From contig CAXNKG010000003.1 of the NCBI GenBank assembly GCA_964202965.1, positions 23,032-87,031 of the forward strand: a stretch of DNA of 64,000 bases, in the 5' to 3' direction. A program made the position numbers and the translations under genes. This document shows, in pieces, positions 1-50,372 of the stretch. The DNA comes from Vicinamibacterales bacterium. GTDB taxonomy: Bacteria > Acidobacteriota > Vicinamibacteria > Vicinamibacterales > UBA2999. Each line of letters begins with the position of its first letter. Position 1 is the stretch's first letter. The notes below the pieces were generated by a model that was given only the letters and a program-made list of their open reading frames with translations, had not been told where the DNA came from and ran no database searches.

Positions 1-2825
1 CTGGCAAACTGCGGCGTTTCGACCCCTGCCGTCAGATTGGCGATGTGGGTTCGGTTCGAGGCGCAATTGCCGCGATCGGCGTGTGGGTTGTCAGGGTCCG
101 AGAAGCCGCCAGCGGGCTGCTCGAAGCCCACTGAGATCACGTCGCCGAAGCAGTACGCCCATGTGTAGTTTCCGCTGAGGCTCACACCATTGGTGGCGCG
201 GCGGCGCATGGACAGCTTCAGGCCACGATAACTCTGCGTGCTGATGTCGACGAACTTATCAAGCGTGCCGATGAGCCGCCCCTCCTTCGGGTTCTCCAGC
301 GACAACTGGCGCCGCTCGTTCACGTTGGCGTTGTTGGTGCACGACGCGTAGAACACGCCGTTGAGCGTGCAGGGGCCGAGGCCCAGGAAGACGCCAGGGT
401 TCAAGGCCAGCTTGTTCCAGAAGCGGTCCGAGTACGTGCCCAGATAGCTTGCCGACACCCCCCAGTCCGTCCCAAGCTGCCGTTCGATGGTGACGTTCCA
501 CGACTGCACGCGGGGCGAATTGATGTCTCGGTCCACCGCGCCGAACGCTCCGTAGGGCGGAAACTGCACATCCGCACTGGCGACAACCGGGTGCGGGTCG
601 CCACCGAGGTGTCGATAGGGATTGTCAAACCCGCCCGGCGGATCTTCCAACCGGATGAGGCTGGCGAACGGCGGTGCTGCGACGTGGTGAAGCTGGAACT
701 CCGCGATCGGGAATGTATACGCGAGCGAGTAGGAGGAGCGCAGCGCCATGCGACCGTCCCCGGTCATGTCCCAGGCGATCCCGACGCGCGGAGAAAAATT
801 CCGCCATTGTGTGTCCATGCCCGTCTGGCCGTCAGGAAAGCCAGGGTCGCCTGTGTAGCTGAGACCGGCGGGCGCGTTTCGGTACACGGTGCTCTTGGCG
901 CCCTGTCGGAAGGCGTCGAGACTGAAATTGGAGATGGCGTTGTTCAACATCTTCTGCCCGAAGAACGGCTCCCAGCGAAGACCCGCGTTCACGGTCACCC
1001 GGTCCGTCGCCCTCCAGGTGTCCTGAGCGTACGTCCCCATGTAGAGTTGGGTCATATCCATGAGGATGGGTCCGCCGTGCTCCAAGACAGACACTCTACC
1101 CGCCATAAAGTCTGCGATCCCCAGGCCGGTGATCTGACCGCTGAAGGTCCAGTTGCCGCCGGACCGCGCGTGGGTACGCTGGTCGGACTCCCAATACGCC
1201 ACGTTCGCGCCGATGGCCATCTGGTGGCGCCCCCGAACCAGCGTGAGGTCGTCCGAGACCTGGTAGGAATTGGTCTCGAACAGGCCCGTGGCCGCCGTTC
1301 CCCCTGAAATGTTGAACCCGGTGGTCACCGCGATGACCGTGTGTCCCGGGTCGTAGGTGTACAGGTCGGAGCCCACCGAATAGGGATCGAGAAACGGCGG
1401 GTTGCTGCGATCGACGGCTGTCCGATTGAACACCACGCGCAGCGAGTTGACCCCGTTGGAGCCGAACACGGTCGTATCGCCCAGGGCCAGCGACTGGGCC
1501 AGCGTGTCCCGGCCTGCCACGCTCGTCGTCAGGATGTTATCCGTCTGGGAATAGGGCGGGGGCCTCTTCTCAAAGGTGGCCATATACCGCCCGAACAAGG
1601 TTCGATTGGCGCTCCATTGGAAGTCGACCCTGGCCACCGTCTGCCCCTCTTTCCCGTTCCCCGGCAGGCCGTACCTGATCTCACCACACGGATCGGTCGT
1701 GCTCGGCAGCTTCGCGACGGTCTTCACGGCGGCGGGGCTGAACAGCGCGGGATTGATCCGGTTATTCACGAACGGCGCGCGCAGGGTGATCTGCCGGCCG
1801 CTATTGCACGCGGGCGAGGCGAAGGCGGTAAAGTCGCCGGCCATCATGGCGGCGGTCGGCACGTAGGCGAGGTTGTCGGTGGGCGTCTGTTTGAGCCTCG
1901 TGCCCTGGTACGCGCCAAAGAAGAAGAGCCTGTCGGCGACAATCGGTCCGCCCAGCGTCCCGCCGAACTGGTCGCGCCGCAGACCGTCATCTCTGCGCTT
2001 GCCGCCCGGACCCAGGGCGGCGAACGGAGCGGTCGCGTTGAACCGCTTGTCTCGGAGGAACTCAAACAGATTTCCGTGGAAGGCGTTGGTGCCGGATTTG
2101 GTGACCGCGTTGACAGAAGCTCCTGTGTGCATTCCGCTCTCGGCCGACAAGCCGCTGGTCGCCACCCGGAACTCCTGGAGCGCGTCGGGGAAGGGGAGCG
2201 GCAGGTTCAGGTTGTCATGCGGATTGTTGTGCATCGCTCCGTCGAGCAGGTAGGCCACGCTGGCGCCCTGTCCGCCGGCGACGGCGACGGCCACGCCCCC
2301 GGTGATACTCCGGGCGGACGCGACGCCCGCCTGGACGGCCGCGCCGGCCAGCACGATGAGGTCCGTGACCTGGCGCCCCTGGAGCGGCAGTTCCACGATC
2401 CGCTCGTTCTCGACCACCTCGCTGATGCCGGCGCTCCGGACATCCACGAGCGGCGTGGCCGCTTCCACGGACACAGTCTCTTCCAGGCTCCCGACCGCCA
2501 GCACCGCATTGATGGTCGGCGACGCCGCGACCTGTAGCACGAGGCCGGTCTGGACGTAGGTGCGGAATCCCTGCAGCGACACCTCCAGCCGATACGGGCC
2601 GGTCGGCAGGTTCGGCAGCACGTAGGCGCCGTTCTCATCGGTCACGATGGTGCGCGTGAGCCCGGTGTCGGTCTGCGTCACAGTGACGGTGACGCCAGGT
2701 AGCACGCCGCCGCTCTGATCTCGGACCGTGCCGCTGAACTGCGCGGTGGCCTGCGCCCAGGCGGCCGCGCCGGTCAGCAGAACAATCTGCGCGCCGATGG
2801 CGCATACCCGTAGAATCCGTGTCAT
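1..2825 (-). CDS. TonB-dependent outer-membrane receptor with N-terminal carboxypeptidase-regulatory-like domain (3' end runs off the left edge)
   Basis: Absent from the ORF track because no stop is reached. My translation of the minus strand from ATG 2825 gives MTRILRVCAIGAQIVLLTGAAAWAQATAQFSGTVRDQSGGVLPGVTVTVTQTDTGLTRTIVTDENGAYVLPNLPTGPYRLEVSLQGF..., i.e. signal peptide plus CarboxypepD_reg-type beta-sandwich, then receptor-like sequence open to position 1. GGAGG lies about 8 nt upstream. The + ORFs 591..1307 and 1341..2537 are its antisense shadows. Confidence 0.85.
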   Translation of the reverse strand, partial: MTRILRVCAIGAQIVLLTGAAAWAQATAQFSGTVRDQSGGVLPGVTVTVTQTDTGLTRTIVTDENGAYVLPNLPTGPYRLEVSLQGFRTYVQTGLVLQVAASPTINAVLAVGSLEETVSVEAATPLVDVRSAGISEVVENERIVELPLQGRQVTDLIVLAGAAVQAGVASARSITGGVAVAVAGGQGASVAYLLDGAMHNNPHDNLNLPLPFPDALQEFRVATSGLSAESGMHTGASVNAVTKSGTNAFHGNLFEFLRDKRFNATAPFAALGPGGKRRDDGLRRDQFGGTLGGPIVADRLFFFGAYQGTRLKQTPTDNLAYVPTAAMMAGDFTAFASPACNSGRQITLRAPFVNNRINPALFSPAAVKTVAKLPSTTDPCGEIRYGLPGNGKEGQTVARVDFQWSANRTLFGRYMATFEKRPPPYSQTDNILTTSVAGRDTLAQSLALGDTTVFGSNGVNSLRVVFNRTAVDRSNPPFLDPYSVGSDLYTYDPGHTVIAVTTGFNISGGTAATGLFETNSYQVSDDLTLVRGRHQMAIGANVAYWESDQRTHARSGGNWTFSGQITGLGIADFMAGRVSVLEHGGPILMDMTQLYMGTYAQDTWRATDRVTVNAGLRWEPFFGQKMLNNAISNFSLDAFRQGAKSTVYRNAPAGLSYTGDPGFPDGQTGMDTQWRNFSPRVGIAWDMTGDGRMALRSSYSLAYTFPIAEFQLHHVAAPPFASLIRLEDPPGGFDNPYRHLGGDPHPVVASADVQFPPYGAFGAVDRDINSPRVQSWNVTIERQLGTDWGVSASYLGTYSDRFWNKLALNPGVFLGLGPCTLNGVFYASCTNNANVNERRQLSLENPKEGRLIGTLDKFVDISTQSYRGLKLSMRRRATNGVSLSGNYTWAYCFGDVISVGFEQPAGGFSDPDNPHADRGNCASNRTHIANLTAGVETPQFA

Positions 2826-3069
2826 CACAGGCCTCCTCATGTTCCCGATTCCCGACCGCGCGCGAGCATCGATGAGCCGACGGCAAGAGACTGATGGCAA
2901 GTATTTATGGCTGCTGTGCGCACGGGTAGTATCAAGCCGACATTTCCTATTTGGCTTCCGAAGATCGGCCACATCCTACAACCGTTCGCTCTGCCCTGCT
3001 CGATTGGAGTCGTGCTGGTTCCGGTGGCGATCCACAGAGACGCCGTGCCGCACCTGCTCAGAACGCAGC

Positions 3070-3396
3070 TCACTGTGCCGCGGTGATCGAGTCCACCTGG
3101 ATCGTCTTGGTCCTGCCGTCGAGCACGCCCGTGACCTGCACTTTTTGTCCCGCGAACTTCTCCGGCGTCTGCTGGTCGCTCAGCGTGTAGACGGTTGTGC
3201 CATCACGGAGCACGTACTGGGCGCCGTGCGCGATGACGCAGGCCACCGTGCACTCGGCGTCGGTCGGCCCCATGCGCATGGAGGCATGACCGGCCGTGGC
3301 GCACATGTCGTCGGTGATGACCCCGGTGAACGTCTGCTTCTCCTGCGCCGCCGACAGCGCGCCCACCGCGAGCAGGCCTACGATCAGATGCTTCAT
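3070..3396 (-). CDS. small secreted cysteine-containing protein (DUF5818-like, tentative)
   Basis: 108 aa with signal peptide MKHLIVGLLAVGALSAA. Conserved-looking FTGVITDDMCATAGH...CTVACV...YVL...VYTL...FAGQKVQVTG pattern. Confidence 0.6.
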   Translation of the reverse strand: MKHLIVGLLAVGALSAAQEKQTFTGVITDDMCATAGHASMRMGPTDAECTVACVIAHGAQYVLRDGTTVYTLSDQQTPEKFAGQKVQVTGVLDGRTKTIQVDSITAAQ

Positions 3397-3412
3397 GACG
3401 CCCTCCAGAACA

Positions 3413-3438
3413 CGTGCGCAGGCTCACGCCTGCGCACG
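3413..3438 (-). terminator. perfect GC-rich hairpin downstream of the 3459..4046 gene
   Basis: CGTGCGCAGGC-TCAC-GCCTGCGCACG: 11-bp stem, 4-nt loop, no U tract. Same core as the hairpin at 22187..22206. Confidence 0.45.
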
Positions 3439-3458
3439 GCACACTGGTGAAAACCGGA

Positions 3459-4046
3459 TCAATGTCCAGGAATCATGATGTGCGCGGTCGACGTCCCGGC
3501 ATTCATGATCCACGCACCGCCCATTTTCGGATTGTCGGGCAATCCCGTTGACTGGGTCGTCGCACCCGGTGTGGCGACGGTCATGTGTGGGCGCGCGCGC
3601 GCCTGGTCGGGTCCACTCAGGTTGTGAAACCCGGACCCGTACTCGGGCTTGACGCGGGTTCCGTCCTTTTCCGACGCGTCGAGCATCGCCTGTTTCTTGT
3701 CGCCCATGGCTTCGAATGTCAGATTCTGCGCGACACGGACGAGATTGGCGATGCTGGTGCACTCAATCGAGAACGCCGGCTGTCCGGCCTGTCCCGATCG
3801 GTCGTAGCACACCAGACGGTTCGTGCCCTTCCTCAGCGTGTCGTACGTGAAATCCGGTTTCCACTTGACGACCGTGGCCTGGTCGCGCTGGTTGGCGGGA
3901 GCCGCGAGCACGGCCTTGTCGACGTCGGCCTGCGACGCCCCCTGCTCCAGTGGCGGGAGCGGCGGGGCTGCGCCGCGGCCCTCCTGCGCAAAAACGCTGG
4001 TCGAAACGAGCAGCGCACCAACAATGAGAGTAACGAGACGTGTCAT
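3459..4046 (-). CDS. secreted hypothetical protein
   Basis: 195 aa with signal peptide MTRLVTLIVGALLVSTSVFAQ. Coding-like composition; no family recognised. Confidence 0.6.
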   Translation of the reverse strand: MTRLVTLIVGALLVSTSVFAQEGRGAAPPLPPLEQGASQADVDKAVLAAPANQRDQATVVKWKPDFTYDTLRKGTNRLVCYDRSGQAGQPAFSIECTSIANLVRVAQNLTFEAMGDKKQAMLDASEKDGTRVKPEYGSGFHNLSGPDQARARPHMTVATPGATTQSTGLPDNPKMGGAWIMNAGTSTAHIMIPGH

Positions 4047-4269
4047 GGCGTGACCTCCACTTGAATGGCTTGGAACGTTCTTGCCGGCGAGCGAACACTA
4101 TATCGTGGCGCACACTCGCCCGTTGCCGATTGTTGAGGAGCAACGGGCCGGCTCGATGACGCTACAATTTGCCACATTTCTCCCCGCCATCCAGGCGGCA
4201 AATTGCGCTACCCTTCCACCCCGAATTCGTACTGGACCGCGAACCCCACTGCGTCGCTGGAGGCACCCT

Positions 4270-5001
4270 ATGATGCGCACCGCCGCCTTCGTTATTACGT
4301 TCTTCGTTTCGACCGCCGGCCTCGCGGCGGCCCAGGAGTGGGCCGAGTTCCAAAGCATTCGGGACGGCTTCACGGTCACGTTCCCCGGTCAGCCGACCGT
4401 GAAGGACGCCACCTGGAAATCCCAGCAGAACTACGTCCTGCCGGCCCGGCAGTACACCGCCGACCGGGGCCGTGCCCACTACTCGATCACGGTGGTCGAC
4501 TACAGGGGCATCGAGCGGATGGCCCAGGAGCGCGTGAAGACGTGTCCGGCAGGCGCGCCGCTTTGTGTGGGCACCGCTCTGGGGGGATTCGGCATGTGGA
4601 AGCACGACGTGCGGGAGGCGCCTCTCTTCGCCACGATGCAGTTCCTTCAGCGCGACGCGAAGCTGACCGACCTCTCCTGGAGTCAGCACGACATGGTGGT
4701 GGGCCAGGAGTTGCAAATGCTCAACACCGACCAGTCGCGCACCTACGGCTATGTCGCCATGCACGACATGAGGCTCTACATCCTGGAAGCGACGATTCCC
4801 GCTGGGGATCCGCCCGCGACGCTGTTCCAGTCGTCGATGTCCTGGGTGGATGCCAGCGGCAGCGGCATCCGGTACCAGACGATGTACAGCAACGAGTTCC
4901 ACGGTCTGGGGGTGTATCCCGTGCCGGCACGGGCGCCGGCCGCCGTGGGCGCGCCGGCCGCCGCACCGCCGGAGCGGGGCGGCAACGCCGGGGCCCGCTA
5001 G
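4270..5001 (+). CDS. secreted hypothetical protein
   Basis: In-frame ATG at 4270 inside track ORF 4081..5001, preceded by GGAGG. Starts MMRTAAFVITFFVSTAGLAAAQEW (signal peptide). Pro/Ala-rich C-terminus. Confidence 0.6.
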   Translation: MMRTAAFVITFFVSTAGLAAAQEWAEFQSIRDGFTVTFPGQPTVKDATWKSQQNYVLPARQYTADRGRAHYSITVVDYRGIERMAQERVKTCPAGAPLCVGTALGGFGMWKHDVREAPLFATMQFLQRDAKLTDLSWSQHDMVVGQELQMLNTDQSRTYGYVAMHDMRLYILEATIPAGDPPATLFQSSMSWVDASGSGIRYQTMYSNEFHGLGVYPVPARAPAAVGAPAAAPPERGGNAGAR

Positions 5002-5057
5002 GCCAGCCGGCCATGACTACACCCGCCGGAAGGCGGTTACGAGAGGAGTTGCCCATC

Positions 5058-5576
5058 ATGCACAGCCGCCAGTTTCGGATTCGTGTCGCGACGATGACCC
5101 TGCTCCTCGGCCTGGCCTCGACGGCAATGGCGCGGGCGCAGCAGCCGGCGATGACGGACGCAGACGTCGCCCGGGTCAAGACCGAAGTGACCGCCGCCCT
5201 GGACACGTACTACGCCTACTTCTCGGCGCGCAACCTGAAGGCGCTGCCCGAGGAGATCTTCAACATCCCGTGGATCGTGATCGACGGGTCCGGACCGCAG
5301 GCGGATCTGACCAGGGAGCAGGCGCTGGCGCGATTCGAGGGCTCTGTGAAGACCCTGGTCGCCAGCGGCTGGGGCAAGTCGGTGTTCACCACCCAGAGCG
5401 TATGCGTGCTGAACGCCAGCGCGGCGATCGCCAGCGGCTACAATACGCGCTACAAGGCCGATGGCAGCGTGATGTCGGTAGGCGGCGTGTCGTACCTGTT
5501 CGGCCGGACGACGCAAGGATGGCGCGTGGTGTCCTACACGGGCCACGCCCGCGACAAGGTGGTGCGCTGTGACTGA
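5058..5576 (+). CDS. NTF2-like (SnoaL/DUF4440-type) secreted protein
   Basis: Only the last 172 aa of track ORF 4203..5576 look real. ATG 5058 follows GAGAGGAG. Signal peptide MTLLLGLASTAMARAQ, then an NTF2-fold-like sequence ending WRVVSYTGH. Confidence 0.55.
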   Translation: MHSRQFRIRVATMTLLLGLASTAMARAQQPAMTDADVARVKTEVTAALDTYYAYFSARNLKALPEEIFNIPWIVIDGSGPQADLTREQALARFEGSVKTLVASGWGKSVFTTQSVCVLNASAAIASGYNTRYKADGSVMSVGGVSYLFGRTTQGWRVVSYTGHARDKVVRCD

Positions 5577-5656
5577 GTCGCGCTCCCGGCATGGATCGGC
5601 GCATCGGCCGCCGTCTGCAGAGAATGTGTGAGCAGGTTCACAACAGCAGGCCCGGG

Positions 5657-5959
5657 CTACTGACCGGCGCGGCGACGGACTTCAGCTAAGAGCGGGTCCT
5701 CGGCAGCTTTCGCACGGATGTTGAGATAGACGCGGTATGACTCGGCACACTCCGCGCTGTTGAGGCCCTGCCGGGCTCGGCCCTGGTAGTAATAGACCCA
5801 CGGGAGATACCCAAAGGCGGGCTCCTCGTCCAGGAACAGCTCGCCGCGGCTGTTGAGGCTCCGGTCACACTCGGAATCGGCCTGCAGGAACAGACCGGCT
5901 GCCACATACGCTCGCCCAAGGTCGAAGCGGCCAATCCATGTAGGGAACAGAACGTCGGC
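5657..5959 (-). pseudogene. remnant of the C-terminal TPR-like end of a larger protein
   Basis: Open frame ADVLFPTWIGRFDLGRAYVAAGLFLQADSECDRSL...YYYQGRARQGLNSAECAESYRVYLNIRAKAAEDPLLAEVRRRAGQ. It is bounded upstream by an in-frame TAG (5960..5962), with more similar-looking sequence beyond. No credible start or RBS. Confidence 0.3.
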
Positions 5960-7154
5960 CTACTCATCCTCGAGTCCCGCCTCCATGTTGAATCGTACCG
6001 GGGTCGCAAGAACAGGGACAAGACGAGAATCCGACCACCAGAGGCGCGCAACGACCGAGTTCCAGGCCCGCTCTAATGCCGTTGCTGGCGTTTATCGGCC
6101 TGGCGGCGGGCATCGCCTTCTCCGGGACCTACTACTACCTAAGAACCGAGCAGCGCTTCCGGCTTGCGGCAGAACAGGAACTCCTCGCCATCGCCGATCT
6201 GAAGGTGGGTCAACTGGTGTCGTGGCGTGACGAACACATCATGGATGCGAGGGTCCTGGGCACTGTGTGGGAGAGGGGCGACGCGGCGCGCTTCGTTGCG
6301 CAGCCGAACGACGCAGCCGCGCGACGTGCACTGACGGAGGTGCTGGAGCAGGTCACGGCAGCATACGGCTATGAAGAGGCTCAGGTGTTGGATAGCAAGG
6401 GGGTCTCGCTCCTTACCGTGCGCGCCGTGGGCAGCCAAGCAGACTCCACGCTGGTCCAGACAGCCACCGATGCCCTGCGGGCCGGTCAGGTCACGATTGA
6501 GGACCTTTACCGAAGCGACTCCGACCAGCAGATCTATCTGCGGGTGATAGCTCCGTTCTTCAGTATGGCGGATGCCAGCCAACCGCTGGGCGTGATCGCT
6601 CTGCGCCTGAAGCCGACGGCCTTCCTCTATCCGTTCATTCAGTCCTGGCCGGTGCCCAGTGAGACCGGCGAGACGCTGCTCGTTCGACGAGATGGAGACA
6701 GCGTCCTGTACCTGAACGACCTGCGGTTCCAGGCGCAAGCGGCCCTCAACGTGCGGGGCTCACTCCGAGGGAACGACCTCCCGGCGGCCCGGGCGGTCAT
6801 GGGGCAGACGGGAATCATGGAGGGAATGGACTACCGCGGCGTGCGGGTGATGGCCGCCCTGCGCATGGTTCCGGATTCGTCCTGGTTTCTGGTGGCGAAG
6901 AAGGACCTGGCGGAGGTGACTGCACCGGGCAGGGCGCTGCTGTGGCCGGTGGTCTTACTGATGGGCGTTACGATCCTCGGTGCCGGCCTCGGCGTGAATC
7001 TGTCCTGGCAGCGACAGGCTCTCCACCACTACCGGCAGCAGGCGGGGGCAGACGAAAAGATGCGCGACAGCGAGCTGAAATTCCGCACCTTGTTCGACAC
7101 AACGACCGACGCCCACATGTTGCTTGCCGACGGTCTCTTCGTGGACTGCAACGC

Positions 7155-7312
7155 CACGACGGCCCACTGGGAGGGGTGCTCAGCGCCGTGCTCCCTGACC
7201 ATCCGGATCGCCCGCTCTCGGACCTCCGGGGAATATCGACTCTGTCGTGCCATGGGCTCCATCCTCTCAAGGAATGAGCCCTCCCACGATCCCGGTACGA
7301 TTCAGAGAGTCA
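7155..7312 (-). mobile_element. IS3-family insertion sequence remnant (left end plus first ~30 codons of orfA)
   Basis: Minus-strand ORF 7029..7262 begins [34 protein letters not shown], typical of the IS3-family OrfA HTH N-terminus. It then runs into antisense kinase sequence. The outer end reads TGACTCTCTGAATCG... on the minus strand (TGA terminus typical of IS3 inverted repeats) and ends at 7312. The inner boundary is approximate. Confidence 0.55.
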
Positions 7313-7484
7313 CGTGGGCGAGTCCCCGGCGATCGTGCCCTGCGGATCGTACGTCATGCTTGCCATACGCGATTCCGGCGTCGGCATGGACGAGGCCACG
7401 CGCGCGCGCGCGTTCGAGCCGTTCTACACGACCAAGCCGCAGGGCAAGGGCACGGGGCTGGGGTTGTCTACCGTGTACGGCATC

Positions 7485-7526
7485 GTCAAGCAGAGCTCAG
7501 GCTTCGTCAAGCAGAGCTCAGGCTTC
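7485..7526 (+). repeat. perfect 21-bp tandem duplication inside the kinase ATP-binding domain
   Basis: GTCAAGCAGAGCTCAGGCTTC occurs twice back to back (7485..7505 and 7506..7526). This gives the in-frame [14 protein letters not shown]. Confidence 0.9.
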
Positions 7527-8082
7527 GCCTGGATCGACAGCACGGTCGGCCGCGGGACGACTGTCACGGTCTACCTGCCACGTGCGACCGGGGAGGCGCT
7601 GTCCCCCGGCGCGCCCAAAAAGACTGCAGCGCCCGGAGGGACCGCCGTAGCGCCACGCCCCGGCACCGGCACCATTCTCGTCGTTGAAGACAATCCCTCG
7701 CTTCGCAAGGTCGCCACTCGTATGCTCGAGTCCGGCGGCTACACCGTGCTTGGGGCCGGCACGGGGCCGGAGGCACTGAGCCTTCTGGCCCGCCAGGCAG
7801 GCCCGGTGTCCCTGGTGCTGACCGATGTGGTGATGCCCGGCATGAACGGGCGGGAACTCGCGGAGCAGATTGCGGAGTCCCACCCGGAGATCAGGGTGGT
7901 CTTCATGTCTGGGTACACCGAGGACGCCGTGTTGCTGCGCGGAGTGTCGGAGGCACACATGGCCTTCATCGGCAAGCCGTTCTCCAAGCCGCAGTTACTC
8001 GAGAAGGTTCACCAGGTTCTCAATTCGTAGACTGGCGCTGGCGTCCACCCCGCTTGAGTCGCACTCGGCTTTAGGCGTCGTC

Positions 8083-9345
8083 CTACTGCTTCTTGCCCTG
8101 ATCGTGCGGCACGACGACGCCCACGTTCGCCGTCGCCCTGTTGCCGGTGTCATCCGTGCACGTGACGGTCACCGTATACACCCGCCCGCTGCCATTGCCA
8201 CTGCGGGCCGCCCGCAGCCGAACGGACAGCGGACCGGTCACGGCGAGGTCGCCGGAGTCGCCCTCGTTGCTGGTCACTGACGTGACTTCGCAGGTCGGAT
8301 TGGCAGTGAAATCGTCAGTGGCGGTAACGGTGATTGAGACGTCCTTCATCGTGTCGTCTGGCGGCCACAGCGCATCGGGCGACGCCGACGTCGCCGTGAT
8401 CACGGGCGGCGTTGTGTCCACGACGCAGCCCTCAAAATCGCACGCCTGGTAGGCGGCGGTCTCGCCCGCCAGAGTGGAGATCATGTTGGGAGCATTGCCG
8501 CCGCTACGCCAGGCGATGAAGTTCGTGACCTTGTACGGCCCGTCGAGACCGCTCGAGCCGATGGCCGTACCGTCGAAGCGGAGGGGAAGGGTCCTCGCCC
8601 CAGCGGAAAAGAACCCACTGCCAGTCGCCATGCCGAGGTTCGTTCCGTCCGGAGCCTCGATCGCCGCGCTCCAGCGGTAGGTACCTGCTGCCGGATCTTC
8701 CAGGTTGACCAGGAAGCTGACGTCCAGATGCTCATACTTGCCATTGGAGTTCGTATCGACGCCGTGTTCGTCGATCCCGATCAGTGACATGCCGTGGCTG
8801 GTGGTCACCTCCTCCAGGATCAGGGCCGCCCAGTCGATGGCCGTGCACCAGACAAATTCTGCGTTGGCCGTATCGATCTCGATCGTCACGTCATTGCTCA
8901 CCGCTCCTGAGCCGCCGGTCGGAAACACGACCTTCGCGATCGGCACGTAGAACGAATTCAGGGTCCAGGCGTTGTTGATGCCCAGAAGATGTCCCAGGTT
9001 GAGCCCATTGAACGAGACGATGTCGACCTCCGGCTGGTAGCCAGGCACGTTCGCCTTGTCATCGACATCGAACGCCGGCATCAACAGTTTCGCGGTGGCC
9101 GGCAGGACGCTCGGGAGGCTATCGACCGGGATCTGAATGCGGAGCGGACTGCCATTGCGGAAGGTGCAGCCGGTATCGAGCCCGCCGCCGGAATCAATCA
9201 CGAAGACGTTGTTCGAGGGATTGGGCGGATCGATTGGCGCACTGCCGCTATGCGCTGCCCAGACGACGGCTGGCAGCGCCATCGTGAGAGCCGCGATACC
9301 GGCGAGTATCGACCTCGAAAGGGTCCTGCTTGCGAGTATTCGCAT
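8083..9345 (-). CDS. secreted protein with C-terminal Ig-like module
   Basis: ATG 9345 (MRILASRTLSRSILAGIAALTMALPAVVWA) follows AAGGAGG. The C-terminus carries the recurring LWPPDDTM...SNEGDSGD...LRAARSGNGSGRVYTVTVTCTD...VVVPHDQG module seen in many secreted bacterial proteins. Confidence 0.7.
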   Translation of the reverse strand: MRILASRTLSRSILAGIAALTMALPAVVWAAHSGSAPIDPPNPSNNVFVIDSGGGLDTGCTFRNGSPLRIQIPVDSLPSVLPATAKLLMPAFDVDDKANVPGYQPEVDIVSFNGLNLGHLLGINNAWTLNSFYVPIAKVVFPTGGSGAVSNDVTIEIDTANAEFVWCTAIDWAALILEEVTTSHGMSLIGIDEHGVDTNSNGKYEHLDVSFLVNLEDPAAGTYRWSAAIEAPDGTNLGMATGSGFFSAGARTLPLRFDGTAIGSSGLDGPYKVTNFIAWRSGGNAPNMISTLAGETAAYQACDFEGCVVDTTPPVITATSASPDALWPPDDTMKDVSITVTATDDFTANPTCEVTSVTSNEGDSGDLAVTGPLSVRLRAARSGNGSGRVYTVTVTCTDDTGNRATANVGVVVPHDQGKKQ

Positions 9346-9430
9346 CGGGAAATCCTCCTTACTCCTCAGATTGGCCACGCCGTAATACAGATTGCCACGG
9401 TACACCGTAAGTTATCGCTCTAAACCCGCC

Positions 9431-9949
9431 CTATTGCTTCTTGGGCAGCTCTGCGTCGCCCCGCTTGAGCACTTCGCGCATGTCCAGCGGATTCTGCATG
9501 GCGCCGTCGGGGCCGAGGGGTGAGGCCTTGGTTGCGGATCCGGCGTGGCTCTGCGGCTCGGCAGACGGACGCACCTTCAGCTGACCGGCCGCGCGATCGA
9601 GCGCCTGCTGCAGGAGGGCCGTGTCAAACGGCTTGGTCACGTACGCGACCGCGCCCATGAGCCGGCTCGTGCGAATCGTCGTGGGGTCGTCCCGGCCGGT
9701 GCTCATGACGACCGCCGTCTCAGGCCAGCAGGTCTCCACCTGCTCGACCAGCCACAACCCGTTGTACTCCGGCATGTTGATGTCGCAGAGCAGAATGTCG
9801 GCCGGGTCGGCCTTCATGGCGTCCATGGCGTCCATGGCGCTACCGACAGCCCGGACGTGTCCATATCCCCAACTCGTGAGCCAGCGCGACAGAAGCTGGC
9901 GAACCTGCGCCTCATCGTCGACGATCAGTACCTTCTTGTCGTGGGACAT
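9431..9949 (-). CDS. single-domain response regulator (REC) with C-terminal extension
   Basis: KVLIVDDEAQVRQLL..., phospho-acceptor context ILLCDINMP, and YVTKPF. Confidence 0.85.
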   Translation of the reverse strand: MSHDKKVLIVDDEAQVRQLLSRWLTSWGYGHVRAVGSAMDAMDAMKADPADILLCDINMPEYNGLWLVEQVETCWPETAVVMSTGRDDPTTIRTSRLMGAVAYVTKPFDTALLQQALDRAAGQLKVRPSAEPQSHAGSATKASPLGPDGAMQNPLDMREVLKRGDAELPKKQ

Positions 9950-9991
9950 CGTTTCTCCTCCAGCCTCCGGCGCGGCGCGTCACCGGCCGGC

Positions 9992-11593
9992 TCAGGCCGA
10001 CTGCCGTCCTTCATCGGATGTGCCGCCGCTGCGCGAGCGCAACTGGCGGATGCTCTGTTCGATACGCTCGGCCAGCTCCCGTTCCTGGCTCAGCATGCGC
10101 AGCGTGTTCTGCGCCTCCTGCATCACGAACTGCACGCTCGACAGCTTCTCGGTGAGATGGTCGACCATCGCCTTCTGCTCGCCGACGGTCTCGAGATTAA
10201 CCCGGACGTCCTCGAGCAGGTTGGTGATGAGCGCAGTCTTCGACTGGACTTCGTCCACGTCGCGCCGGCGCGCCTCGATGGACGCGATCGCGTCGTCGGC
10301 GGCGGTCGCCAGCGCGAGCAGTTCCTGCACCTGCCGCCGGAGCCCCGTGACCTGGTCGCGGTGGTCGGTGACGAACAGCAGATCCTCGCGGCTCTTCGCG
10401 CTGATCGCGTGTACGGCCTCAAGCTCGGTGCGCACCGACGCGAGGACCGCTTCGCGGTCCGCGAGCCCCTTGAGCCGGTCGTCGATGTCGGTGGACGCCT
10501 GGGCCAGCTCGGCCATCTTCATCTCGACGCCCGAGAGCTTCTTCTCCGAGAAGGCCAGCTGGGATCGGCGCTGCTCAAGCTGGCGGTACATCGCGTCAGC
10601 GCGCCGCAGCTGCTCCTCGACGGTCTCGGCCTGTGCCACCGCCTCGCGCTGCCGCGCCTGGATGCGGGCGAGATCACCGAGGAGTTCCTCCTTGACGGCG
10701 CCGGAGCGCTCCAGCTCCTGCCGCAGCGTCTGCATCTGCTTCATGCGGTCGTCGGCCTCGTCCGCCAGCGCGCGGCTGGTATCGGACAGCTCGATGAGCC
10801 GCGCCTCCTGTTGCGCGAGGGCCTCCTCGTCGCGCTGGACGTCCTTGACGCGCGCCCCGGTCTTCTCGACGCGGTCTTCGAGAATCGACATGCGCACATC
10901 GAGCGGCGCGAGCTTTGCCTGCGACGCGATGACGGCATCGACCTTCTGCTGCGCGTCCAGCATCTGCGTAATGACGCCGTCGCAATCGGTCCTGAGCGCG
11001 TCGAGCTCGGCGCGCCGTTCCAGCTGCGTCGCAAGCCTGCGGTCCACCTCGCTCGCGACCTCATGGAGGCCGTTGAGGCGCCCCTCCACGGCCTCGACGA
11101 ACTGGATGCGCTCGGATACACGGACGACCTGGCCTTCAAGCGCGACCGACATCTCCGCCAGGCGCGAGGCGTGACGGAGGCCGTCGTCAATCTCCCCCAG
11201 CCGCCCGGTGATGGCGGTCATGGTCGCCTCGAGCTCCGGCGTCCGTGCACGGAATGACGACACACGGTCGGCGAACGATTCGAGCGCCGCCCGATCCGCC
11301 GTCAGCCGGTCGCGCAGCTGGGCGGCCTCCGCGTAGGACTGGTGGAAATCCTGGATCTCCTTGCGGAGCGTTTCGAGATCCGCGCGGCTCTGGCGCAGGC
11401 TCTCGTGCTGCGCCGCGGTCTTTGTGGACATGTCCTGCACGAGCGCGAGATGTTCGCGCAGCGATTCCAGGCTGGCCTGCCGCTGGCCCAGCTCGTCGGC
11501 CTGCTCGAGCAGGCGCTGAAACATGACGCTGAACTCCCCCATGCGGGCCGGGAGGTGCGACAGCTGGCGCTCGCGGGCCGCCAGCGTCTCCAT
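9992..11593 (-). CDS. large coiled-coil protein
   Basis: 533 aa, E/R/L/A/Q-rich heptad-like sequence throughout. Coiled-coil-like sequence continues upstream of the first ATG in the same frame. Confidence 0.7.
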   Translation of the reverse strand: METLAARERQLSHLPARMGEFSVMFQRLLEQADELGQRQASLESLREHLALVQDMSTKTAAQHESLRQSRADLETLRKEIQDFHQSYAEAAQLRDRLTADRAALESFADRVSSFRARTPELEATMTAITGRLGEIDDGLRHASRLAEMSVALEGQVVRVSERIQFVEAVEGRLNGLHEVASEVDRRLATQLERRAELDALRTDCDGVITQMLDAQQKVDAVIASQAKLAPLDVRMSILEDRVEKTGARVKDVQRDEEALAQQEARLIELSDTSRALADEADDRMKQMQTLRQELERSGAVKEELLGDLARIQARQREAVAQAETVEEQLRRADAMYRQLEQRRSQLAFSEKKLSGVEMKMAELAQASTDIDDRLKGLADREAVLASVRTELEAVHAISAKSREDLLFVTDHRDQVTGLRRQVQELLALATAADDAIASIEARRRDVDEVQSKTALITNLLEDVRVNLETVGEQKAMVDHLTEKLSSVQFVMQEAQNTLRMLSQERELAERIEQSIRQLRSRSGGTSDEGRQSA

Positions 11594-11667
11594 CCGCTGC
11601 TCGGCCTGCTGGACCGAGCCGTCGAGGACACCCAGCTCGGCGTGGAGAAGAAGGGGCTGGAGACGCT

Positions 11668-11886
11668 TCAGCGTGTGGCAAGTGCCTCGAGGCTGCTGGT
11701 CGCCTCCGCCGCTTTCCTGTCGACCTGCTCGAGGGCCCTTCCGGTTTCGATCAGCGTCGCGCTACGCGTTGTGACCTGCGTGAGCATGGTGCTGAGCGCC
11801 GTCCGCTCCTCGCGCGCGGTCTTGATCACCGCGTCGAGCTCCTCGAGCTGTTGCTGGCGTTTGCGTCCGGTGAAGGCGTCGAGCAT
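11668..11886 (-). CDS. short coiled-coil ORF, possibly the detached N-terminus of the 9992..11593 protein
   Basis: ATG 11886: MLDAFTGRKRQQQLEELDAVIKTAREERTALSTMLTQVTTRSATLIETGRALEQVDRKAAEATSSLEALATR. This is the tail of track ORF 11668..12822, the rest of which is antisense to comM. Confidence 0.4.
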   Translation of the reverse strand: MLDAFTGRKRQQQLEELDAVIKTAREERTALSTMLTQVTTRSATLIETGRALEQVDRKAAEATSSLEALATR

Positions 11887-12039
11887 GCGACAAAGAATAC
11901 CTGCCGACGCGCCTAAGCTCAAGTGCTGATTGCAGTTACGAACACATCGAGGCGTGCGGGATGGTGACGATTCTGCGGTCCCGATGCGCGGCGGACCGGG
12001 AATGCCCGTGTTCGGCGCTGGCGGGCGCTGATCGCCATC

Positions 12040-13581
12040 TTGCATCCTCGAGGCAGTGTGCTCGCCAGTCTTTGCAGCGCCGCCGTCTTCGGCATCGATG
12101 CCTATCCGGTCCAGATTGAGATTGACGTGTCGTTCGGGCTGCCGAACTTCACGATGGTGGGCCTGCCGGACGCCACCGTCCGGGAAAGCCGCGATCGCGT
12201 CCGGGCGGCGATTCGGAATTCGGGGTTCGAGTTCCCCTCGCATCGGATTACCGTCAACCTGGCGCCCGCCGACGTCCGGAAGGCGGGATCTTCGTTCGAC
12301 CTGCCCATTGCGCTCGGCCTGCTCGCCACATCCGGCCAGCTGTCCCGCCGATCGATCGACGACACCATCGTTCTCGGCGAGCTCTCGCTCGACGGCGGAA
12401 TCAACGGCATTCGCGGTGTTCTCCCGATTGCCATCGCGGCCCGGCGCCTCGGGCTGCGCCGCCTGCTGCTGCCGCCGCAGAACGCGGCGGAAGCCTGCGC
12501 GGTTGAGGGGGTCGAGGTCTGCGTCGCGCGCTCGCTGCCGGAGGCGCTGACTGCGCTCAACTATCCGGACCGGGCGGAACGCGCGTCGGCCGGTCCCCCG
12601 CCGCCCCCGCCGTCCGCGATCGACAGTGCCGCCGACGGCGACCTCTCGGATGTTCGCGGCCAGGCGCTTGCGCGGCGCGCGTTGGAGGTGGCGGCGGCGG
12701 GCGGCCACAACCTGCTGATGTGCGGCCCGCCGGGCGCGGGCAAGACGATGCTGGCACGACGGCTGGCGGGTGTCCTCCCGCCCTTGAGTTTCGACGAGGC
12801 GCTCGAATGCACCGCGATTCATTCGGTGGCCGGCACGCTGCGCCCAGGGGCAGGGCTACTCACGGCGCGTCCCTTCCGTGCGCCGCATCACACGATCTCC
12901 AACGTCGCCCTCGTGGGCGGGGGTGCCATCCCGCGGCCTGGAGAGATTTCGATGGCACACAACGGGGTGCTGTTTCTGGACGAGATGCCGGAGTTCGACC
13001 GCCGCGTCCTCGAGGTGCTTCGTCAGCCGCTGGAGGAAGGACACGTGACGATCGCCCGCGCCGCGCGCACGGTCGCCTTCCCTGCCCGCTTCGTGCTCGT
13101 GGCGGCCATGAATCCATGCCCGTGCGGGTACCAGGGCGATACGCGTCGCCTGTGCCGCTGCACGCCACCGCAGATCGATCGCTATCGCGGCAGGATTTCA
13201 GGGCCGCTTCGCGACCGGATCGATCTGATCGTTGACGTACCCGCCGTTCCCCTCGCCGCGATCACGGACGGCCAGCCGGGCGAACCCACCCGCATCGTCC
13301 GTCAGCGCGTGTCCGCTGCGCGCAGTGCGCAGCAGGTGCGATACGAGGGACTGCCGCCGCGCATGAATGCGGAGCTCCGGGGTGCGCTGGTGCCGCGCTT
13401 CTGCGCGCCCACGGCGGCCGGGCGCGAACTCCTTCGCCGCGCCATCGATCGGCTCGGTCTCAGCGCGCGCGGCTACGACCGCGTTCTCAAAGTCGCGCGC
13501 ACGATCGCCGACCTTGCGGATTCGGCCGTCGTCGACAGCGATCACGTGGCGGAAGCGCTTCAGTATCGATCGCTCGAGTAG
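12040..13581 (+). CDS. comM: YifB/ComM family Mg-chelatase-like ATPase
   Basis: ChlI/MCM-type AAA+ core (NLLMCGPPGAGKTMLARRL, GVLFLDEMPEF) and a Lon-protease-like N-domain. TTG 12040 or GTG 12058 are possible starts. Confidence 0.9.
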   Translation: MHPRGSVLASLCSAAVFGIDAYPVQIEIDVSFGLPNFTMVGLPDATVRESRDRVRAAIRNSGFEFPSHRITVNLAPADVRKAGSSFDLPIALGLLATSGQLSRRSIDDTIVLGELSLDGGINGIRGVLPIAIAARRLGLRRLLLPPQNAAEACAVEGVEVCVARSLPEALTALNYPDRAERASAGPPPPPPSAIDSAADGDLSDVRGQALARRALEVAAAGGHNLLMCGPPGAGKTMLARRLAGVLPPLSFDEALECTAIHSVAGTLRPGAGLLTARPFRAPHHTISNVALVGGGAIPRPGEISMAHNGVLFLDEMPEFDRRVLEVLRQPLEEGHVTIARAARTVAFPARFVLVAAMNPCPCGYQGDTRRLCRCTPPQIDRYRGRISGPLRDRIDLIVDVPAVPLAAITDGQPGEPTRIVRQRVSAARSAQQVRYEGLPPRMNAELRGALVPRFCAPTAAGRELLRRAIDRLGLSARGYDRVLKVARTIADLADSAVVDSDHVAEALQYRSLE

Positions 13582-13632
13582 GGCCACAGAGGCGCGGGCT
13601 TCGTGTCTTCTGTCCGTATCCGCCCCTGGAGG

Positions 13633-14490
13633 CTACGTCCGGGAACTGGCTGACCGACGGCCGAACATGGCCTGCGCGGCACTCGCCGCGATGACGACCG
13701 CGCCTCCGAGGAGCGTCCAGCGGCCCGGCGTCTCGGCATGCACCAGCCATGTCCAGATTGGATTCAGCACGGGCTCCAGGAGAAGGAGCAGTGACAGTTG
13801 GAGTGCCGGCAGGTGGCCGACCGCGCTCGTCAGCAGGATGTACGCGAGGCCGATCTGGAACACGCCAAGGTAGACAAGCGTGGCCCATTCGGCGGGCGAC
13901 GCAGCCGGGAGGGGGAGCAATACCGGAATGCCCGACGCGAACGCGAACACGTTGCCCGCAATGACGGCCGCGAGGGCTGTGCCTGGCGCGCGCTGTTCGC
14001 CCCAGCGCAAGCCCAGGAGCGTGAACGCCCACGTGACACTGCAGGCCGCACCCAGCACATTGCCCAGGACCGGGTCAGGCGCGGTGGCCGTGGCTGCCGG
14101 CTGCCCGAGGAAGCAGAATGCGAGGCCGGCCGCCGCCGCCGAGACGAAGAGCAGGTCCCGCCGATCGAAGCGTTCGCGAAGCAGGAGAGGCGCCAGGGCC
14201 ACGATGAACAGCGGCGCCGTCGACTGCAGGAAGATCGCGCTGGCCGCCGTCGTGAGCTTCGTCGACGTGACAAACAGCACGAGGGTCGCGGCGTAGACGA
14301 TGGCGATCGGCAGGACGCGCCAGGACCATCGCGCCCCGCCCCGGATCCACAGGATGAGCGCCAGGGCGGCCACGCCGGACCTGAGCGACGCCACCTGCAT
14401 ACCCGAGAACGCGCCTGTCTTGATGGCCGCGCCACCCGTGGAGAACAACAGGGCCGCGCCGATGACGCGCCAGGCTGAGGATTGCCACAT
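13633..14490 (-). CDS. EamA/DMT-family transporter
   Basis: 285 aa, about 10 hydrophobic helices, two EamA-like halves. Confidence 0.85.
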   Translation of the reverse strand: MWQSSAWRVIGAALLFSTGGAAIKTGAFSGMQVASLRSGVAALALILWIRGGARWSWRVLPIAIVYAATLVLFVTSTKLTTAASAIFLQSTAPLFIVALAPLLLRERFDRRDLLFVSAAAAGLAFCFLGQPAATATAPDPVLGNVLGAACSVTWAFTLLGLRWGEQRAPGTALAAVIAGNVFAFASGIPVLLPLPAASPAEWATLVYLGVFQIGLAYILLTSAVGHLPALQLSLLLLLEPVLNPIWTWLVHAETPGRWTLLGGAVVIAASAAQAMFGRRSASSRT

Positions 14491-14574
14491 TCGTCTGATT
14501 TTCGCCTCCCCAGTTTCCTTTTGTCGAGCCGGGAACCCGTGTGGTAGCCTCGGGTTTTCCCTGCTCAGCTCCCA

Positions 14575-15510
14575 ATGAAGCCTTCAACGCGATACACGAT
14601 TCTTGTGGCCGATCGCACCAGCGGACTGGTGCGCCGAGCGACGATCGCCTCTCGGCCAGTCGCGGTCGCGGTGTCGGTCGTGCTCGCGACGCCCATTCTT
14701 ATCGGCTTTGGTGCGGCGTGGAAGGGCTGGAGCGATGTATCGGACCTCTACGCCAGCCACCGTGCGCTCGAGGTGGAGAACGCCAATTATCGGCAGGCCA
14801 CTGAAGCCCTCGCCGGCCAGATCAACTCCCTGCAGAGCGCCATCAGCAACCTGAGCGAAAAGTCGACGCTCGATCCGAACCTGGCGCGCGCGATGAGCCG
14901 CCTGCCCGCGATCACCAAGTCGCGCGCCATGGGTGGTACCACGACGGCGCCCTCCAAGGATCAGGAACTGTCGTACGCCAAGACCTTGTCCGCGCTGGCG
15001 GCACCGGACGACACATTCGGGCTGCTGCGGTCGGTGCTCGAAGGGCTCCAGGATCGTCTCAATGTCGTCGCGCGGAACGTCGATCGCCGGAATGCGCTCG
15101 CCAATGCTACCCCGTCGATGTGGCCGGCCTACGGCTGGCTGTCGTCCGGGATGGGCCCGCGTCGTGACCCGGTGACCGGCGGTCCGGACTATCACTCGGG
15201 CCTCGACATTGCCGGTGAGCGCGGCCAGCCCGTCTACGCGACGGCGGCGGGCACCGTGCGGCATGTCGGCTATCAGGGCGCGTACGGCAACCTGATCGTC
15301 CTCGACCACGGGTTCGGACTCGAAAGCCGCTACGGCCACCTCCTCAAGTACCAGGTGAAACCGGGCGCGAAGGTGAAGCGCGGCGACATCATCGGCCAGG
15401 TCGGCGCCACGGGCCGTGCGACCGGGTACCACCTCCACTACGAAGTGTTTGCCAACGGCCGCCTCATCAATCCGCTCCAGCTGCTCACGCAAAACCCGCG
15501 CGACCGATAA
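14575..15510 (+). CDS. M23 family metallopeptidase
   Basis: N-terminal TM and coiled coil. HSGLDIAGERGQPVYATAAGTV...YGNLIVLDHG...YGHL...GDIIGQVGATGRATGYHLHYEV matches the HxxxD and HxH motifs. Confidence 0.87.
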   Translation: MKPSTRYTILVADRTSGLVRRATIASRPVAVAVSVVLATPILIGFGAAWKGWSDVSDLYASHRALEVENANYRQATEALAGQINSLQSAISNLSEKSTLDPNLARAMSRLPAITKSRAMGGTTTAPSKDQELSYAKTLSALAAPDDTFGLLRSVLEGLQDRLNVVARNVDRRNALANATPSMWPAYGWLSSGMGPRRDPVTGGPDYHSGLDIAGERGQPVYATAAGTVRHVGYQGAYGNLIVLDHGFGLESRYGHLLKYQVKPGAKVKRGDIIGQVGATGRATGYHLHYEVFANGRLINPLQLLTQNPRDR

Positions 15511-15594
15511 CCTCCCTGCAATCTGCGGTCTCCTTGCCGGTTCGTAGCCTCGCGGCTAGAATCGGTGGATCCATCTCTCTCCGCCACTCAGGAC

Positions 15595-20134
<4,540 letters not shown>

Positions 20135-33170: not shown

Positions 33171-33589
33171 AAGCGTCGCAGCTTTCCGTAAGCCGAATCC
33201 TGTCCAGCCGTCGCGGCCTTGCGGCCGCTATGACCTGGACGACCATTCCTCTAGGCCCGCGATTGCTCGCGGGCTCAAGCGACCTACCCGGTGGCTTCGG
33301 ACGGGCCGTCCTCAAACGCCACCCTATTTGGTCTTGCTCCGTGCGGGGTTTTGCCTGCCACCCGTGTTGCCACGGGCGCGGTGCGCTCTTACCGCACCTT
33401 TTCACCCTTACCCACCATAGCGCCGAGGCGCGACGGTGGGCGGTATTTTTTCTGTGCCACTATCCGTCAAGTTGCCCTGCCCGGGCGTTACCCGGCGCAC
33501 TGCCCTCTGGAGTTCGGACTTTCCTCCCGCCTCCGCCGTTGGCCGTGAAGCCCGCGCGGAGACCGGCGGTCGTCTGGATTACTGCGACT
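33171..33589 (-). ncRNA. rnpB: RNase P RNA, bacterial type A
   Basis: The minus strand contains the universal cores GGAGGAAAGTCCGAACTCC, AAGGGTGAAAAGGTGCGGTAAGAGCGCACC and ACAGGATTCGGCTTAC. P1 pairing is GTCGCAG (33588..33582) with CTGCGAC (33181..33175). Only junk ORFs occur on both strands. The ends are approximate. Confidence 0.92.
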
Positions 33590-35043: not shown

Positions 35044-35129
35044 GGTTCCGGGTTCCACGTTCCGGGTTCCGGGTTCGATCGCAACGCCGAACATGAACCT
35101 GGAACCCGGAACCTGGAACTCGGAACTGT
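35044..35129. repeat. inverted pair of heptanucleotide arrays (GGTTCCG units) forming a long imperfect hairpin
   Basis: GGTTCCG GGTTCCA CGTTCCG GGTTCCG GGTTCGA - tcgcaacgc - CGAACAT GAACCTG GAACCCG GAACCTG GAACTCG GAACTGT. It fills the gap between the protease stop (35136) and the regulator start (35038). Confidence 0.85.
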
Positions 35130-39704: not shown

Positions 39705-40490
39705 CTACGGCTTGAAGAGCCGTACGAAGTTGTCGCGCGTGGCCGCGGCGATGTCGCCCGCCGTGGTGCCGCGGAGAGCGGCGACCGCGCTGGCGACGTG
39801 GATCACCCGAGCCGGCTCGTTGCGGGTTCCCCGGTGCGGCACCGGCGCCAGGAAGGGGCTGTCGGTTTCGATGAGGAGCCGATCGATCGGCACGAGCCTC
39901 GCGACGTCATGGAGCTCGTGTGCCCGCGGGAATGTCACGATGCCCGCCAGCGAGAGGTAGAAGCCGAGATCGAGCGCGCGCGCCGCCATGGCGCGGTCGC
40001 CCGTGAAGCAGTGCAGGACCACGCCGGTGTCGCCGGCGGATTCCTCCGCCAGTACGCGGAACGTATCCTCCTCTGCCTCCCGGGTATGGATGATGATGGG
40101 CAGCGCCAGGCGGCGGGCGGCGCGGATCTGTTCGCGGAAGACCGCCTGCTGCACATCGCGCGGCGCGAAGTCGTAGTGGTAGTCGAGCCCAATCTCCCCA
40201 AGTGCGCGGGCGGCGGGCCGGCCGGCGATGCGCGCCTCCACCAGGCGGGCCGCGCGGCCCGGGTCGTCCGCAAACTGCGCAGCGGCGTGGGGGTGGACCC
40301 CAACGGACAGCCTGATCGCGTCCCAGGCGGCGGTCACGACGTTGGCGCGCTCGTACTCCGCCTCGTCATCCGCCGCGATGATGACGAGCGCCCCCGTCAG
40401 CCCGGCGGCCCGGGCGCGCTCGATGACGGCTGGAAGATCGGCCTCGAACTCCTCGCCGGCCAGGTGGCAGTGCGAGTCAACGAAAGTCAA
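39705..40490 (-). CDS. tatD: TatD-family metal-dependent hydrolase
   Basis: TTG start giving (M)TFVDSHCHLAG; IIHTREAEEDT; LLIETDSPFLAP. Confidence 0.9.
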   Translation of the reverse strand: MTFVDSHCHLAGEEFEADLPAVIERARAAGLTGALVIIAADDEAEYERANVVTAAWDAIRLSVGVHPHAAAQFADDPGRAARLVEARIAGRPAARALGEIGLDYHYDFAPRDVQQAVFREQIRAARRLALPIIIHTREAEEDTFRVLAEESAGDTGVVLHCFTGDRAMAARALDLGFYLSLAGIVTFPRAHELHDVARLVPIDRLLIETDSPFLAPVPHRGTRNEPARVIHVASAVAALRGTTAGDIAAATRDNFVRLFKP

Positions 40491-40520
40491 AGGTCAAAAG
40501 TCAAAAGTCAAAAGTCAGGG
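40486..40520. repeat. heptanucleotide tandem array (GTCAAAR x5)
   Basis: GTCAAAG GTCAAAA GTCAAAA GTCAAAA GTCAGGG lies in the 38-nt gap between the metG stop and the tatD start. The tatD TTG codon lies in the first unit. Confidence 0.85.
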
Positions 40521-50287: not shown

Positions 50288-50316
50288 GGAGCAGCTAGGC
50301 TACCTTAGGTCGCCCA

Positions 50317-50372
50317 CCTTTGACCTTTGACCTTTGACCTTTGACCTTTGACCTTTGACTTCTGACTTTTGA
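50317..50372. repeat. heptanucleotide tandem array (CCTTTGA x6 perfect, then 2 degenerate)
   Basis: CCTTTGA x6, CTTCTGA, CTTTTGA. It starts one nt after the stop of the 50374..51081 gene and ends 30 nt before the DedA start. It is the reverse complement of the unit at 40486..40520. Confidence 0.9.

Follow-up and report, generated by a model that had tools for sequence, protein, structure and literature searches.

A probable pseudogene of a hybrid sensor histidine kinase, split by an IS3-family remnant, in a Vicinamibacterales bacterium

The sensor, insertion sequence and receiver parts of the locus

We analyzed a 64-kb stretch of contig CAXNKG010000003.1 from a Vicinamibacterales bacterium (the window; all positions below refer to it), in which the sensor half and the ATPase-receiver half of what appears to have been a hybrid histidine kinase are separated by a remnant of an insertion sequence (IS) of the IS3 family. 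An earlier note, made from the sequence alone, had proposed a kinase gene gutted by a deletion anchored in such an element; all of its main elements were found, at most 8 bp from where it had placed them. The locus comprises the following features:

6076..7160, plus strand: N-terminal sensor kinase remnant (open reading frame (ORF) list, weak dCache_1 match, homologue alignments)
7161..7304, minus strand: IS3-family remnant, element positions 1-144 (blastn, alignments A1 and A2, OrfA identity)
7305..8030, plus strand: C-terminal kinase remnant (Pfam HATPase_c and Response_reg, homologue alignment)
7485..7526, plus strand: perfect 21-bp tandem duplication (GTCAAGCAGAGCTCAGGCTTC x2; Tandem Repeats Finder and exact-match check)

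The N-terminal fragment begins the ORF at 6076-7650 (plus strand), whose frame stays open through the IS remnant and continues into out-of-frame sequence up to a stop codon at 7648-7650. Two transmembrane (TM) helices, at ~6079-6141 and ~6934-7002, enclose a periplasmic (extracytoplasmic) domain of ~260 residues with a weak match to dCache_1 (Pfam, E 0.003), and a short linker follows the second helix. The sensor domain family is very large (11,444 matches in the representative library), and the best relatives of the fragment, Cache-TM-PAS sensor kinases, are 42-46% identical to it over ~350 residues. The PAS domain is represented by just its first ~27 residues (~7081-7160), its start having been placed by alignment to proteins P0002 and P0303, in which PAS occupies residues 345-457 and 363-471, respectively. 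The point at which the PAS domain breaks off coincides exactly with the start of IS DNA. The sensor, the TM helices and the beginning of PAS had thus been read correctly in the earlier note, while the end of this part had to be moved from ~7155 to 7160.

The IS remnant is read on the minus strand. Terminal inverted repeats in the IS3 family begin with 5'-TG and end with CA-3'; the left one of the remnant starts with TGAATCGTACCGGG and runs from 7304 down to ~7279. A leader follows, and OrfA starts at the ATG at 7253-7251 or at an in-frame ATG at 7262-7260. Codons 1-31 of OrfA are kept (7253-7161), ending in ...SQWA at 7161. For protein searches, these 31 residues were lengthened with a consensus continuation, and identities were computed on the genuine 31 residues only; 30 of the 31 are identical to OrfA proteins carrying PF01527 (e.g., P0156 and P0158). 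In Pfam, HTH_Tnp_1 is matched over its positions 1-25 of 75 (E 0.012), which is under the cut-off. At the DNA level (blastn), the remnant is 70-75% identical to annotated IS3/IS51-family transposase loci on plasmids; for 30 IS copies in metagenome-assembled genomes (MAGs) of Acidobacteriota/Vicinamibacterales and a few others, the identity is 82-91%. The similarity begins at the T of TGAATCGTACCGGG (7304) in every alignment and ends at 7160-7162 (30 MAG copies; A1 and A2), and the left repeat can be aligned, base by base, to the ends of the 30 MAG copies and of annotated IS3/IS51 elements. The expectation that the minus strand of the spacer would encode ~30 residues of an IS3-type OrfA, and that the spacer would be similar to IS3 elements, therefore holds. 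Two details do not: the IS terminus, given as a TGA at 7312, is TGAATCG at 7304, 8 bp away, and the spacer, given as ~158 bp, is 144 bp long.

Full-length relatives of the element are 1308-1427 bp in length and carry inverted repeats of ~26 bp; their OrfA has an HTH_Tnp_1 domain, their OrfB, which is in the -1 frame, has HTH_21 and rve domains, and their right end reads ...CCCGGTACGATTCA. This layout fits the published description of the IS3 family (PMC6211511). With IS3/IS51-like elements (e.g., IS51 of Pseudomonas and the copies in Vicinamibacterales/Acidobacteriota MAGs), the remnant shares the left repeat 5'-TGAA-CG--CCGGG, a leader of ~50 nt with a conserved TTGAGAGGATGGAG block and the OrfA N-terminus (R/K)YSPEVRERA(I/V)RMV...SQWA, probably the beginning of an HTH_Tnp_1 fold. 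It differs from them in holding only the first 144 of ~1300-1400 bp, over which the closest DNA relatives that were found are 91% identical. About 11% of the element is thus kept, while OrfB, the right inverted repeat and ~1.16-1.28 kb in total are gone; neither OrfB nor its DDE (rve) transposase domain is present in the window. Since all three (OrfB, the DDE domain and the right inverted repeat) have been lost, the remnant is an inert left end of an IS3-family element that cannot move and is not a functional family member.

Related IS copies are very abundant in Vicinamibacterales, and a search of GTDB genomes with a 27-mer seed retrieved 35 loci containing them. GTDB contigs CBDDJX010000001-3 (loci L009-L043), which belong to one long-read Vicinamibacterales MAG, hold a 1308-bp IS3-family element, 82-84% identical to the remnant, in more than 30 copies. 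These copies represent a marked IS expansion; several contain frameshifts, which may be long-read errors, and no clear target duplications of 3-4 bp were seen in the few copies inspected. Among related copies in other MAGs, one (L040, ~5263-6285) lies beside or inside a Ser/Thr protein kinase gene, and one (L007) has in turn received an insertion of an IS110-family element.

The C-terminal fragment extends from 7305 to the stop codon at 8028-8030, in a frame that differs from that of the N-terminal fragment ((7314-6076) mod 3 = 2). It contains the last two thirds of an HATPase_c domain (Pfam profile positions 36-110 of 111; ~7305-7586) and, after a linker, a complete receiver at 7674-8009 (Response_reg 1-110 of 111, E 5.5e-23). 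The G1 (DSGVGM), F (FEPFYTTK) and G2 (GTGLGL) boxes are kept; the N-box is missing. In an alignment with six homologues (A3), the fragment begins at column 185, right after the N-box block (NLAVNARDAM...QLTIET) and ~150 residues downstream of the homologues' H-box (GIAHDFNN). The nine bases at 7305-7313 (E-S-H) belong to the kinase frame and align with the homologues. The mid-HATPase and receiver portion in a different frame is therefore as had been described, except that it starts at 7305 rather than at ~7313. A possible start of the C-terminal open frame is the GTG at 7314, and the receiver within this frame is, as the earlier note had it, intact: E128, D129, D174, S202 and K224 fall in invariant columns of A3, so that the acidic pair, the phospho-acceptor Asp, the Ser and the Lys are all kept. 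No HisKA match was found by Pfam in either kinase fragment, and the sole DNA between the fragments is the 144-bp IS remnant.

Structures of the CckA catalytic and ATP-binding (CA) domain (PDB 5idj and 5idm) align to residues 14-69 of the C-terminal fragment, and the nearest NCBIfam models are likewise of the CckA type (NF046020 and NF046026). The scores (211 and 171 bits) are far under the equivalog cut-offs of 1000, which rules out a CckA identity; the likeness is limited to the type of the CA-receiver module.

Public gene callers list part of this fragment as a gene, a 224-residue HATPase_c and Response_reg protein (P0035; 7356-8030, start ATG 7356), and many database homologues of ~240-300 residues have the same two Pfam domains. 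One could therefore suppose that nothing is broken at the locus and that the sensor-PAS ORF and the ATPase-tail-receiver ORF are two natural, separate genes. We inspected two short homologues that are located on long contigs (L004 and L044). Both belong to full-length kinase genes that a frameshift has split, HisKA and the N-box being encoded immediately before them in a different frame; on these examples, a natural short HATPase-receiver architecture was rejected. Most other short homologues lie on contigs of 1-3 kb and are cut. No orthologues with a naturally truncated architecture were found. In addition, the ATPase domain starts from profile position 36 without an N-box, and PAS ends ~27 residues in, precisely where IS DNA begins. 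The possibility of two intact genes is, in our opinion, almost certainly wrong.

Kinase domains lost and the origin of the two halves

Two full-length homologues show the architecture that the fragments would have had together. P0303 (860 residues) has the order sensor-TM-PAS-HisKA-HATPase-receiver, with HisKA at 498-559, HATPase at 603-723 and the receiver at 744-855 (its PAS domain is given above); in P0288 (986 residues), the order is the same, but there are two PAS domains. Residues 36-388 of P0303 match the N-terminal fragment (42% identity), and residues 644-860 match the C-terminal fragment (38% identity). The two fragments follow P0303 collinearly and in the correct order, and together they reach both of its termini. 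By this comparison, which the earlier note had suggested as a way to size the deletion, ~250 residues (~750 bp) have been lost, namely, the greater part of PAS, the linker, HisKA in its entirety, including the H-box, and, with the N-box, the first third of the ATPase domain. The loss of the PAS remainder, the H-box and the N-box proposed previously is thereby supported. Together with the missing 1.16-1.28 kb of the IS, the total loss amounts to ~1.9-2.0 kb; an ancestor with additional PAS domains would raise this figure.

The sensor, both TM helices and the start of PAS match the family of P0303 and P0288 at 42-46% identity, and the G1, F and G2 boxes with the full receiver match homologues at 38-62%. 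The window gene differs from these hybrid kinases in that its halves are in different frames, are parted by IS DNA and lack ~250 residues, and in that the ATPase remnant has 7 extra residues after the G2 box.

The best relatives of the two halves are not the same proteins. Relatives of the sensor mostly lack a receiver, and the closest relatives of the C-terminal fragment (~60% identity) are PAS-rich CckA-like kinases with arrays of PAS domains, such as the one encoded by the split gene in L004. It could therefore be that a larger IS-anchored deletion affected two genes, so that an upstream Cache-PAS sensor gene lost its 3' part and a downstream CckA-like PAS-HisKA-HATPase-receiver kinase gene its 5' part, together with any genes that lay between them. 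However, members of the sensor family with exactly the combined architecture exist (P0303 and P0288), and the output modules of sensor kinases shuffle freely, so differing best matches are to be expected. The halves also agree in strand and order, and a single deletion within one gene is simpler. We thus consider an origin from two genes unlikely and favor a single ancestral gene. Since the best matches of the two halves are different proteins and none of them is close, the single-gene origin is the parsimonious choice and not a proven one.

Junctions in independent assemblies

The remnant is of nearly the same length (144 bp) as the k-mer used in the independent assemblies (MEGAHIT, k=141), and one of their contigs starts at window position 7166, which raised the suspicion of a false junction. 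The contigs that encode P0035 come from two ENA samples, ERZ27280310 and ERZ27280224, and the following contigs of these samples correspond to the locus:

L003, sample ERZ27280310: window 7166-16629, 100% identity
L005, sample ERZ27280224: window 7165-16629, two differences
L006 (k141_818603), sample ERZ27280224: window 1-7300, reverse complement, 99.986% identity

The junction between the sensor half and the IS is crossed by L006, which ends 140 nt past it, and the junction between the IS and the ATPase-receiver half is crossed by L003 and L005, which start 139-140 nt inside the IS. Each junction is thus separately real, and an artefact is ruled out for each of them by the crossing contigs. 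A further break, at 16629, is shared by L003 and L005; it lies inside a SecA-like gene and may be due to strain variation.

A de Bruijn graph breaks k-1 from the edges of a stretch that recurs at another locus. The breaks at 7165/7166 and 7300 lie at this distance from the edges of the remnant (7161-7304), which holds four 141-mers. It follows that the samples contain at least one further IS copy that is identical over the 144 bp and runs into the IS interior. As for the full copies of the IS that the earlier note had advised looking for, there is no second copy in the 64-kb window, and neither the GTDB representatives nor the JGI metagenomes contain the exact sequence, while the samples themselves, judging from the contig breaks, must have an identical copy.

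The same breaks can be turned against the arrangement seen in the window. If the 144 bp are exactly repeated in the samples, as the interruption of two k=141 assemblies on both sides of the remnant indicates, both junctions could be real and yet mis-paired: the C-terminal half would adjoin a full-length IS, the sensor half with its 144-bp remnant would adjoin some other flank, and the assembler would have joined the two via the shared 144 bp. Nothing that we retrieved covers both junctions, the junction pattern is unmatched in JGI metagenomes, and a look-up of the 524-residue read-through product found no record of it. On the other hand, a repeat of 144 bp is shorter than a 150-nt read with its mate and is resolved by pair-aware or long-read assemblers, and the source contig, reported as 133 kb, also passes the MEGAHIT break at 16629. 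The halves, moreover, share a strand, follow each other in the order expected and complement each other within the P0303 architecture, which a random mis-join would be unlikely to produce. Even if mis-pairing had occurred, the kinase would still be disrupted by an IS, and the sensor side would still bear a truncated IS. We regard such a mis-join as quite improbable; because the halves are on one strand, properly ordered and collinear with P0303, their join in the window assembly is very likely correct.

The assemblies also provide information on decay of the C-terminal half. All three assemblies contain the 21-bp duplication, by which VKQSSGF is repeated directly behind the G2 box, in the ATP-lid region, while the insertion is absent from all homologues examined (the six in A3, P0303 and P0288). 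It is probably a secondary lesion in an already dead gene. Over 9465 nt, L005 differs from the window at just two positions, 7464 and 7484 (300 and 320 of L005), and both are in the kinase remnant. A T>G change replaces a Leu of the G2 box by Val, so that GLGL becomes GLGV; the other, C>A, is synonymous. The two differences could reflect relaxed selection, or k-mer noise beside the tandem duplication. As expected, the duplication and the Leu-to-Val polymorphism fit a gene that is no longer under selection.

Probable history and status of the gene

That a gene can become a pseudogene by an IS insertion and a subsequent deletion is textbook knowledge. In our case, the intact IS end (the left inverted repeat) adjoins the ATPase fragment, and the broken end (past OrfA codon 31) adjoins the PAS fragment, so insertion into the CA domain and then deletion from inside orfA back into PAS would be the simplest history. 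The earlier note had reached the same sequence of an insertion in the ATPase domain and a subsequent deletion, and the geometry of the IS ends supports it, the order of events being inferred from that geometry. The ancestor was most likely a protein of ~850-900 residues similar to P0303, with the order TM, Cache-like periplasmic sensor, TM, PAS, HisKA, HATPase and receiver. An IS3-family element of ~1.3-1.4 kb would have entered the part coding for the ATP-binding domain, in the orientation opposite to that of the kinase, its left end lying at 7304|7305. Later, ~1.9-2.0 kb would have been deleted, with one end of the deletion in the IS, after OrfA codon 31 (IS position 144), and the other ~27 residues into PAS; ~1.2 kb of the IS would thereby have been removed, along with the remainder of PAS, the entire HisKA/H-box domain and the N-box. 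The junction left by this deletion is ambiguous by at most 1-2 nt (7160-7161).

Routine genome decay includes deletions that border on an IS, take away neighbouring host DNA and inactivate a gene (PMC11708052), and the locus shares these features. Adjacent deletions made by the IS itself normally leave the IS intact (PMC11708052) and, in the classical form, start at its end; here, in contrast, the deletion starts inside the IS and looks like a secondary event, independent of transposase, by which the IS was disabled too. Since the IS is itself truncated, ordinary illegitimate recombination would be the most likely mechanism, rather than a transposase-made adjacent deletion. The event looks recent, as the frames of both kinase remnants have otherwise stayed open and another IS copy still has the sequence of the IS remnant.

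Several observations weigh against this history. A full-length copy of the exact IS was not recovered from the window, from GTDB genomes (searched with a 38-mer) or from JGI metagenomes. The flank on the deleted side of the IS is gone, so there is no target-site duplication (3-4 bp in the IS3 family) to compare. With a remnant of 144 bp and independent assemblies at k=141, no independent contig spans both junctions, and it is the assembly of the window itself that places the two kinase halves side by side. Finally, there is no close intact orthologue: the best identities, 46% for the sensor and ~60% for the C-terminal fragment, come from different proteins, and P0303 is just 38% identical to the C-terminal fragment, as opposed to ~60% for the PAS-rich CckA-like kinases.

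With these points taken into account, we believe that the locus is probably a dead hybrid sensor histidine kinase gene that suffered an IS3-family insertion and then a deletion of ~2 kb; it would be a pseudogene of an ordinary kind rather than a new system. Autophosphorylation in HisKA-class kinases requires the H-box and the N-box. Because both are absent, what remains of the kinase should be unable to autophosphorylate, judging from its sequence.

It may be asked whether the ATPase-tail and receiver ORF (224-238 residues) is expressed from the IS remnant or from nearby sequences, as a free receiver that takes phosphoryl groups from other kinases or passes them on. If so, the IS and the deletion would have freed a domain and rewired a phosphorelay rather than just destroyed a gene. 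We consider this very improbable. A scan of positions 5600-8300 revealed no promoter-like site, a result that is uninformative on expression of the C-terminal ORF, and a single terminator-like site, at chance level.

Other features of the window were recorded as well. The kinase locus lies between DUF6841, DUF5818 and TonB-receptor genes on one side and genes for a 440-residue protein, a receiver and a coiled-coil protein on the other. Just upstream of the kinase, an 82-residue ORF (5657-5905, minus strand) is a gene call in public data and has no Pfam match; it may be a gene remnant, and presumably resembles the C-terminal tail of a tetratricopeptide repeat-type protein. A long SecA-like ORF ends at 18522 and is directly followed by a spacerless palindrome of 45+45 nt (18527-18616; 84% complementary), which has no Rfam match and could be a terminator or a repeat element. 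A complete bacterial RNase P RNA of class A (288 bits) is encoded at 33174-33585 (minus strand); the window is therefore chromosomal. Short tandem arrays of 7- or 9-nt units, apparently at gene boundaries, occur at 35044-35126, 40483-40517, 50316-50373, 56127-56164 and 61817-61929, with the units GGTTCCG then inverse GAACCCG, AAAGTCA, ACCTTTG, GGCTTTG and GGGGTTCCT x12.6; the arrays at 40483 and 50316, 9.8 kb apart, are near reverse complements of each other.

Contig breaks at k-1 from the edge of a repeat offer a way to check junctions without reads. The locus is better annotated as a pseudogene with an IS3-family remnant, and the matter is of little consequence beyond annotation; the 224-residue "HATPase_c + Response_reg" database protein should be left out of any count of functional signalling proteins. 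For the organism and its relatives, the identity of the remnant to another copy in the samples points to recent IS activity in the population, and the IS family of the remnant is abundant in related soil Acidobacteriota.

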